DNA of 64,000 nucleotides from Escherichia coli (GTDB lineage: Bacteria; Pseudomonadota; Gammaproteobacteria; Enterobacterales; Enterobacteriaceae): the NCBI RefSeq assembly GCF_024502345.1, contig NZ_JALDNN010000001.1; one strand, given 5' to 3'. The translations under genes and the position numbers were made by a program. Of this stretch, positions 28,115 to 29,517 are shown piece after piece. Each line of letters begins with the position of its first letter. Position 1 is the first letter of the stretch. Under the pieces are notes generated by a model. The model had not been told where the DNA came from and searched no databases. It saw nothing but the letters and a program-made list of their open reading frames with translations.

Positions 28115-29517
28115 ATGGACCAGAAGCTGTTAACGGATTTCCGCTCAGAACTACTCGATTCACGTTTTGGCGCAAAGGCCATTTCTACTATCGCGGAGTC
28201 AAAACGATTTCCGCTGCACGAAATGCGCGATGATGTCGCATTTCAGATTATCAATGATGAATTATATCTTGATGGCAACGCTCGTCAGAACCTGGCCACT
28301 TTCTGCCAGACCTGGGACGACGAAAACGTCCATAAATTGATGGATTTGTCGATCAATAAAAACTGGATCGACAAAGAAGAATATCCGCAATCCGCAGCCA
28401 TCGACCTGCGTTGCGTAAATATGGTTGCCGATCTGTGGCATGCGCCTGCGCCGCGAAAAATGGTCAGGCCGTTGGCACCAACACCATTGGTTCTTCCGAG
28501 GCCTGTATGCTCGGCGGGATGGCGATGAAATGGCGTTGGCGCAAGCGTATGGAAGCTGCAGGCAAACCAACGGATAAACCAAACCTGGTGTGCGGTCCGG
28601 TGCAAATCTGCTGGCATAAATTCGCTCGCTACTGGGATGTGGAGCTGCGCGAGATCCCTATGCGCCCCGGTCAGTTGTTTATGGACCCGAAACGCATGAT
28701 TGAAGCCTGCGACGAAAACACCATCGGCGTGGTGCCGACTTTCGGCGTGACCTACACCGGTAACTATGAGTTCCCGCAACCGCTGCACGATGCACTGGAT
28801 AAATTCCAGGCCGACACCGGTATCGACATCGACATGCACATCGACGCTGCCAGCGGTGGCTTCCTGGCACCGTTCGTCGCCCCGGATATCGTCTGGGACT
28901 TCCGCCTGCCGCGTGTGAAATCGATCAGTGCTTCAGGCCACAAATTCGGTCTGGCTCCGCTGGGCTGCGGCTGGGTTATCTGGCGTGACGAAGAAGCGCT
29001 GCCGCAGGAGCTGGTGTTCAACGTTGACTACCTCGGTGGTCAGATTGGTACTTTCGCCATCAACTTCTCCCGCCCGGCGGGTCAGGTAATTGCACAGTAC
29101 TATGAATTCCTGCGCCTCGGTCGTGAAGGCTACACCAAAGTACAGAACGCCTCTTACCAGGTTGCCGCTTATCTGGCGGATGAAATCGCCAAACTGGGGC
29201 CGTATGAGTTCATCTGTACCGGTCGCCCGGACGAAGGCATTCCGGCGGTTTGCTTCAAACTCAAAGATGGTGAAGATCCGGGATACACCCTGTACGACCT
29301 CTCTGAACGTCTGCGTCTGCGCGGCTGGCAGGTTCCGGCCTTCACTCTCGGCGGTGAAGCCACCGACATCGTGGTGATGCGCATTATGTGTCGTCGCGGC
29401 TTCGAAATGGACTTTGCTGAACTGTTGCTGGAAGACTACAAAGCCTCCCTGAAATATCTCAGCGATCACCCGAAACTGCAGGGTATTGCCCAGCAGAACA
29501 GCTTTAAACACACCTGA
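28115..29517 (+). pseudogene. gadA: Glutamate decarboxylase A, disrupted by a 2-bp insertion after codon 113
   Basis: ORF 28052-28528 matches GadA through ...DLWHAPAP then goes out of frame; ORF 28411-29517 carries [17 protein letters not shown]... to the GadA C-terminus in the +2 frame; the extra CG lies at 28454-28455. Confidence 0.85.

Follow-up and report, generated by a model that had tools for sequence, protein, structure and literature searches.

The closest described counterpart of the locus studied here is gadA of Escherichia coli K-12 (b3517; structure 1XEY), which lies in the acid fitness island in the order ccp-gadA-gadX-gadW-mdtFE-gadE-hdeD and onwards, and which is one of the two redundant genes for glutamate decarboxylase isozymes, gadA and gadB, and belongs to the defence of E. 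coli against stomach acid. Either isozyme reportedly suffices for survival at pH 2.5, with both needed at pH 2, a result that is attributed to Castanie-Cornet et al. in 1999. Bergholz et al. (2007; Mol Biol Evol 24:2323, cited in PMC10362622) described gene conversion between gadA and gadB, and the two genes are a known source of broken or confused assemblies (PMC3045373).

The window, that is, the whole stretch of 64,000 nucleotides of E. coli DNA that was analysed (contig NZ_JALDNN010000001.1 of assembly GCF_024502345.1), is collinear with the K-12 acid fitness island region from about 10.7 to 59.5 kb, in reverse orientation, and all the neighbouring acid-fitness-island genes are intact. Its gadA occupies the same locus as in K-12, with an identical 5' region and a GAD box common to both. 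The two copies differ in the reading frame, which is intact in K-12 and broken after codon 113 in the window by an additional CG. As argued below, this is in all probability a genuine and heritable 2-bp tandem duplication at codon 113/114 by which gadA would have become a pseudogene in a natural lineage of E. coli.

Structure of the gadA locus

From the start codon of gadA at 28115, 113 native codons are read in frame 0, beginning with MDQKLL and ending with DLWHAPAP, the last of them being the CCG codon of P113 at 28451-28453. They are followed by 24 out-of-frame codons and a TGA at 28526-28528, giving a predicted product of 137 amino acids. The initial annotation had described a match to GadA up to DLWHAPAP and then a frameshift to a stop at 28528, and frame reading confirmed this. 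It had also stated that 350 residues were intact in the +2 frame; the remainder of gadA is indeed uninterrupted in that frame, but it comprises 353 residues, K114 to T466, ending with SFKHT and a stop codon at 29515-29517.

In pairwise and multi-sequence alignments with the intact gadA of E. coli 1919D62 and with gadA and gadB of K-12, the sole indel was one of 2 bp, GCGCCG[CG]AAAAA. Thus the single CG insertion that had been annotated holds, while its placement, given initially as 28454-28455, is ambiguous within 28451-28456, the change from CCG to CCGCG being a tandem duplication of CG. The short run of GC dinucleotides that had been proposed amounts to no more than a change from (CG)1 to (CG)2; on either side of it are a direct repeat, GCGCC-T-GCGCC, and a run of five A residues. 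The sequence of the site without the inserted CG is GCGCCGAAAAAT, and the allele with the insertion can be searched for with the string GGCATGCGCCTGCGCCGCGAAAAATGGTCAGGCCG.

Removal of the CG in silico resulted in a protein of 466 amino acids that was identical to K-12 GadA at 466/466 residues (100%) and had as its top PDB match 1XEY, glutamate decarboxylase alpha. All differences between the window gadA and K-12 gadA are at third codon positions, and no amino-acid change is found downstream of the CG. Thousands of E. coli genomes have a gadA that is 95-99% identical to 28115-29517. Since the gene lies between ccp and gadX and carries the gadA state at 26/26 of the gadA/gadB-diagnostic sites in its first 243 nt (with K-12 gadA vs. 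gadB as reference), we regard it as gadA and not as a misplaced gadB. The full-length identity after removal of the CG, the position between ccp and gadX and the 5' sites are those of gadA, but an uninterrupted frame of 466 codons containing the whole of PF00282 and K276 is lacking. As judged from its sequence, the window copy is a gadA pseudogene rather than a functional gadA. The coordinates are collected in Table 1.

Table 1. Coordinates of the features of the gadA locus and of other features of the window.
Feature	Position	Strand	Remarks
yhjV-like serine/threonine transporter ORF	7299..8264	-	profile positions 90-397 only; 5'-truncated
IS1	8360..9127		768 bp; flanked by the yhjV-like gene and the 3'-terminal 294 codons of bcsC (region 7299-10013)
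ccp (yhjA), upstream neighbour	26507..27904	+	465 aa, 99.6% identical to K-12 Ccp
GAD box 20-mer (TTAGGATTTTGTTATTTAAA), gadA promoter region, intact	28016..28035	+	exact match
Truncated gadA frame	28115..28528	+	113 native + 24 aberrant codons + TGA; 137 aa
Inserted CG	28454..28455	+	tandem duplication, placement ambiguous within 28451-28456
A_AAA tetramer	28456..28459	+	last base of CGA + AAA codon; only site where a -1 slip rejoins the GadA frame
gadA remainder, +2 frame	28456..29517	+	K114-T466 + stop; includes K276 codon 28942-28944
Internal ORF, 336 aa (M131-T466)	28507..29517	+	GAGG at 28497-28500 before the ATG; overlaps the end of the truncated frame
gadX, downstream neighbour, intact	29888..30712	+	274 aa, 97.8% identical to K-12
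yhiD-dctR junction	39784..41015		no chu/shu haem-uptake island
yhiS	41984..43207		uninterrupted ORF of 407 codons
IS5	58170..59377		99.6% identical to K-12 IS5T
ORF	59638..60789		383 codons
ORF	60989..62662		557 codons

Consequences of the frameshift and possible routes to an active enzyme

Because the Pfam PLP-decarboxylase domain PF00282 spans residues 33-383 of GadA, the break at codon 114 splits its sole catalytic domain. The codon for K276, which we take to be the PLP-binding lysine (published GadA/GadB structures, 1XEY, 1PMM family), is located downstream of the break and out of frame. Further, the GSS loop (residues 125-127) presumably contacts the PLP phosphate, as in the GadB structures of the 1PMM family. 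The prediction is that no active GadA would be made from the window gadA. In the annotation, the gene ought to be labelled a pseudogene and its frame left "uncorrected", and its decay would represent a routine loss in one of two redundant isozyme genes.

It is conceivable that the 137-aa N-terminal fragment and the 336-aa C-terminal fragment starting at the ATG at 28507 assemble into an active split enzyme. Both ORFs are predicted by gene callers, and the 336-aa ORF is called as a separate gene on metagenome contigs; with a GAGG 5 nt before its ATG and the overlap with the first frame, its translation might be coupled to that of the truncated gene. The 336-aa ORF is, however, without residues 1-130 and covers PF00282 only partially. 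Residues 114-130, including the GSS loop, are thereby absent from both pieces and the cut is inside a single domain, so that we give the split enzyme next to no chance of existing.

Another route would be -1 ribosomal frameshifting at CGA_AAA_A, from which a functional full-length enzyme with an extra Arg between P113 and K114 would result. A slip of the lysine tRNA from the AAA at 28457-28459 to the AAA at 28456-28458 would re-pair without mismatch and lead precisely back into the GadA frame. In addition, the 353 downstream codons are without nonsynonymous change, but this is equally explained by a recent origin of the lesion or by conversion from gadB. The programmed -1 sites known in E. coli (dnaX, IS1, and the IS3 family) are similar to the window site in their A-rich motif and in the possible -1 re-pairing of the lysine tRNA; the window site differs from them in that it lacks a heptamer, a stimulatory structure and a Shine-Dalgarno-like element and is not conserved.

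The window site offers only a Z_ZZN tetramer in place of an X_XXY_YYZ heptamer. Tetramers without a stimulator gave 0.147% frameshifting in E. coli vs. a background of 0.112%, and A_AAA was the weakest responsive tetramer even with a pseudoknot (PMC4066793). When the 80 nt downstream of the site (28461-28540) were folded and scored against shuffles, which covers pseudoknot-free folds, no stimulatory structure was detected (-26.3 kcal/mol vs. a shuffle mean of -26.7, z = 0.12). Nor was any GGAGG/AGGA-like motif that could serve as an upstream Shine-Dalgarno-like stimulator seen by eye in the 20 nt upstream (CATGCGCCTGCGCCG). Moreover, the shift site is a rare derived mutation and not a conserved element (0/5,426 genomes vs. 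8,345 wild-type places). Five A residues are generally too few for appreciable transcriptional slippage. The initial annotation had named programmed frameshifting as something that would refute the inactivation of gadA; with a weak tetramer, an ordinary fold, and an unconserved site it finds no support, and we consider a full-length enzyme made in this way to be highly improbable.

The ccp-gadA intergenic region differs from that of K-12 at one position in 210 nt (27926) and contains the 20-mer TTAGGATTTTGTTATTTAAA, which we take to be the GadE-binding GAD box of the gad regulon. Since the promoter is nearly identical to that of K-12 and the 20-mer is present, the pseudogene is probably still transcribed under the control of GadE. 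The premature stop might also have a polar effect on gadX. The expected phenotype would be a lower dosage of glutamate decarboxylase, and glutamate-dependent acid resistance would be carried by gadB, provided that this gene is intact. As one isozyme reportedly suffices at pH 2.5, a mild phenotype would be expected unless gadB is hit as well. That acid resistance would rest on gadB alone, as initially proposed, cannot be taken for granted from the sequence, given a copy of the CG that is linked to gadB in a metagenome (see below).

Distribution and origin of the CG allele

The CG allele is rare. In 5,426 complete RefSeq E. coli genomes, no match was obtained with a 40-mer that has the insertion at its centre and the CG within each of its 28-mer seeds, whereas the wild-type 38-mer, used as a control, had 8,345 matching places, distributed over 4,294 genomes; this control rules out a DUST or word-size artefact as the cause of the zero matches. 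Exact scans with a 35-mer spanning the insertion likewise gave no matches, either in the GTDB species representatives or in the JGI metagenomes, and partial products of the frameshift allele at contig ends (117-122 aa) are not on record. The literature searched held nothing specific on the CG allele or on gadA pseudogenes. Natural gadA/gadB frameshifts as such are already known.

The exact 137-aa product (P0001) was found in a collection of 15 billion proteins on seven ENA metagenome contigs, from the assemblies ERZ27268145, ERZ10621112, ERZ19695678, ERZ28657917, ERZ28660770, ERZ915402, and ERZ27262646, of which two may represent one sample reassembled. The identical insertion motif in the ccp-gadA-gadX context is present on all seven of these contigs (L003-L009) and on a Logan contig from run ERR2855845. 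Four of these contigs (L003, L005, L008, and L009) were built with k = 119-141, and the distance from the last gadA-specific site (28357) to the insertion is 97 nt. As k exceeds this distance, the linkage of the CG to gadA-specific bases rests on k-mers that were present in the reads. The carriers differ from each other by 19-58 SNPs per 13.4 kb and from K-12 and 1919D62 by 106-137 SNPs; being different gut strains at such short distances, they point to inheritance of the allele in one local haplogroup. In L007, gadA seemed to be disrupted a second time, but this proved to be a run of N in the scaffold and no mutation.

The complete genomes closest to the window region reach 99.2-99.4% identity at most. 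The exact GadX protein of the window (P0031) is rare and a marker of the window lineage, and exact matches to the GadX and Gor variants of the window led to a small number of draft genomes and runs with 99.96-100% identity to it over 10-21 kb (GCA_050022275.1, GCA_001484085.1, GCA_024502245.1, ERR14375843, and SRR24000611). One of these, GCA_050022275.1 (JBAOKM010000029.1; contigs L012/L022), is distinguished from the window over 20,827 bp only by one SNP (29725) and the CG. Its gadA, at positions 8230-9630 of L022, is intact, encodes 466 amino acids and is without the CG.

This clonal non-carrier, together with the lack of the insertion in all the 5,426 complete genomes searched, speaks for the alternative raised in the initial annotation, namely that the CG arose from faulty sequencing, or from faulty assembly, of a source genome in which gadA is really intact. 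Such an error would, however, have to reproduce exactly an allele that occurs on seven metagenome contigs and one contig of an SRA run, all of one haplogroup. Furthermore, none of the other genes checked has an indel: 37/37 K-12 orthologues in 12266-58118, including gadE, gadW, gadX, hdeA/B/D, mdtE/F, slp, dctR, and yhiD, align over their full length without gaps. Nor are dinucleotide insertions outside homopolymers known as a typical error of sequencing platforms. Considering that the same CG is found in independent Illumina metagenome assemblies and in the SRA-run contig, we regard an error as very unlikely; the support for the window's own copy is indirect in that it comes from assemblies of other strains, and this copy could in principle be private to the window assembly.

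If the insertion is genuine, it might still have arisen recurrently at a mutational hot spot, so that the carriers would be unrelated by descent. The CG is found on two flanking haplotypes, that of the window and that of the metagenomes, and is missing from the clonal relative of the window; it occurs in a gadB context as well; other frameshift alleles, described in the next paragraph, cluster at the same site; and the site combines the GCGCC-T-GCGCC direct repeat with the A5 run. On the other hand, the gadA carriers all belong to one local haplogroup and none is among the 5,426 diverse complete genomes, although unrelated backgrounds would be expected from recurrent mutation. The clustering of truncated alleles is also biased, as the protein cluster takes in only fragments of similar length. 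Finally, 1.1 kb (27497-28601) is identical in both carrier haplotypes, and the pattern can thus be explained by a short recombination or conversion tract. We therefore find recurrence unlikely and favour a heritable duplication, which may have arisen by replication slippage. The lesion would be evolutionarily recent; the lack of amino-acid changes downstream is compatible with a recent origin as well as with ongoing homogenisation by gadB.

The segment 28442-28460 (GCGCC-T-GCGCC-G-AAAAA) and homologous sites carry several independent natural frameshift alleles. An A5 to A4 allele was seen on 19 contigs and in 2/5,426 complete genomes, of which one has it in gadA and the other in gadB, examples being gadA of E. 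coli SCU-308, gadB of G4/9, and DEC15E. It shares with the window allele the 20-nt segment, the out-of-frame tail and the stop codon, but it is a 1-bp deletion in the A run instead of a 2-bp CG duplication and occurs in other strains. A 13-nt deletion between the GCGCC repeats was found on one metagenome contig, and one truncation at the site ends in foreign sequence.

Exchange between gadA and gadB

Over a tract of 244 bp (28358-28601), the CG is the only difference between gadA and gadB. Because of this identity, gene conversion can copy the CG to gadB or erase it from gadA and leave no other trace. In the protein collection, the frameshift tail was fused to the N-terminus of GadB in one case, on contig L029 (ena:ERZ27268317:k141_21745), in which the CG frameshift lies in positions 301-714 and the upstream 300 nt and the 5' coding region are of gadB type. 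Thus, the CG lesion may also exist in gadB of some strain. The best account of the intact gadA in the clonal relative and of the gadB-linked CG in one metagenome would be homologous exchange with gadB. The pattern is similar to the gadA/gadB gene conversion of Bergholz et al. (2007) in that the CG lies in the shared tract, is found in both contexts and is missing from a clonal relative. It differs in that mis-phasing gives the same pattern here and in that gadB is located outside the window.

Mis-phasing is a concern since short-read assemblies cannot phase across the identical tract, and calls made within it may therefore be chimeric. The contigs of many relatives stop exactly at gadA, and the internal gadA haplotypes of the metagenome contigs differ at 28602, 28626, 28650, and 28941. 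These haplotypes, and possibly the wild-type call of the draft genome too, may be chimeric, and assemblers with k below approximately 100 see the CG as a bubble in a repeat and may pick either state. Gene conversion between gadA and gadB or short-read mis-phasing probably explains both the clonal non-carrier and the gadB-linked copy. Consequently, calls in the tract, including the "intact" gadA of the clonal draft, need long reads.

With conversion erasing the CG, as in the clonal relative, or spreading it to gadB, as in L029, the frameshift could act as a reversible on/off state of gadA. We regard this as an unlikely interpretation; if it were true, no new mutations would be needed for the lineage to change its dosage of glutamate decarboxylase or to lose the system altogether. 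The locus is not a phase-variable contingency locus with a simple-sequence repeat switch, since the mutant tract has no more than two CG units, (CG)2, and the wild-type tract one, (CG)1. The allele could serve as a small natural example for the study of gadA/gadB gene conversion and of variation in acid resistance among gut E. coli.

Other features of the window

Several differences from other E. coli genomes were observed outside the gadA locus. At the IS1 copy, the cellulose synthesis cluster of about 14-15 kb that other E. coli carry (bcsEFG, bcsQABZ, and most of bcsC) is missing, which looks like an IS1-mediated deletion. The yhiD-dctR junction is like that of K-12, whereas the closest complete genomes in this part (99.3-99.4% identity) all carry chu genes of about 9 kb there. 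The chu/shu island is described as deleted in the K-12 lineage in PMC10362622.

The ORF of yhiS, which in K-12 is split by IS5, is uninterrupted in the window and had no NCBIfam match. An IS5 copy is present just beyond yhiN, and contig L020 of GCA_001484085.1 ends exactly at this site, as expected for a repeat. The two ORFs next to it had no match in NCBIfam or PADLOC; by position, they are presumably the counterparts of the K-12 genes yhiM and yhiJ.
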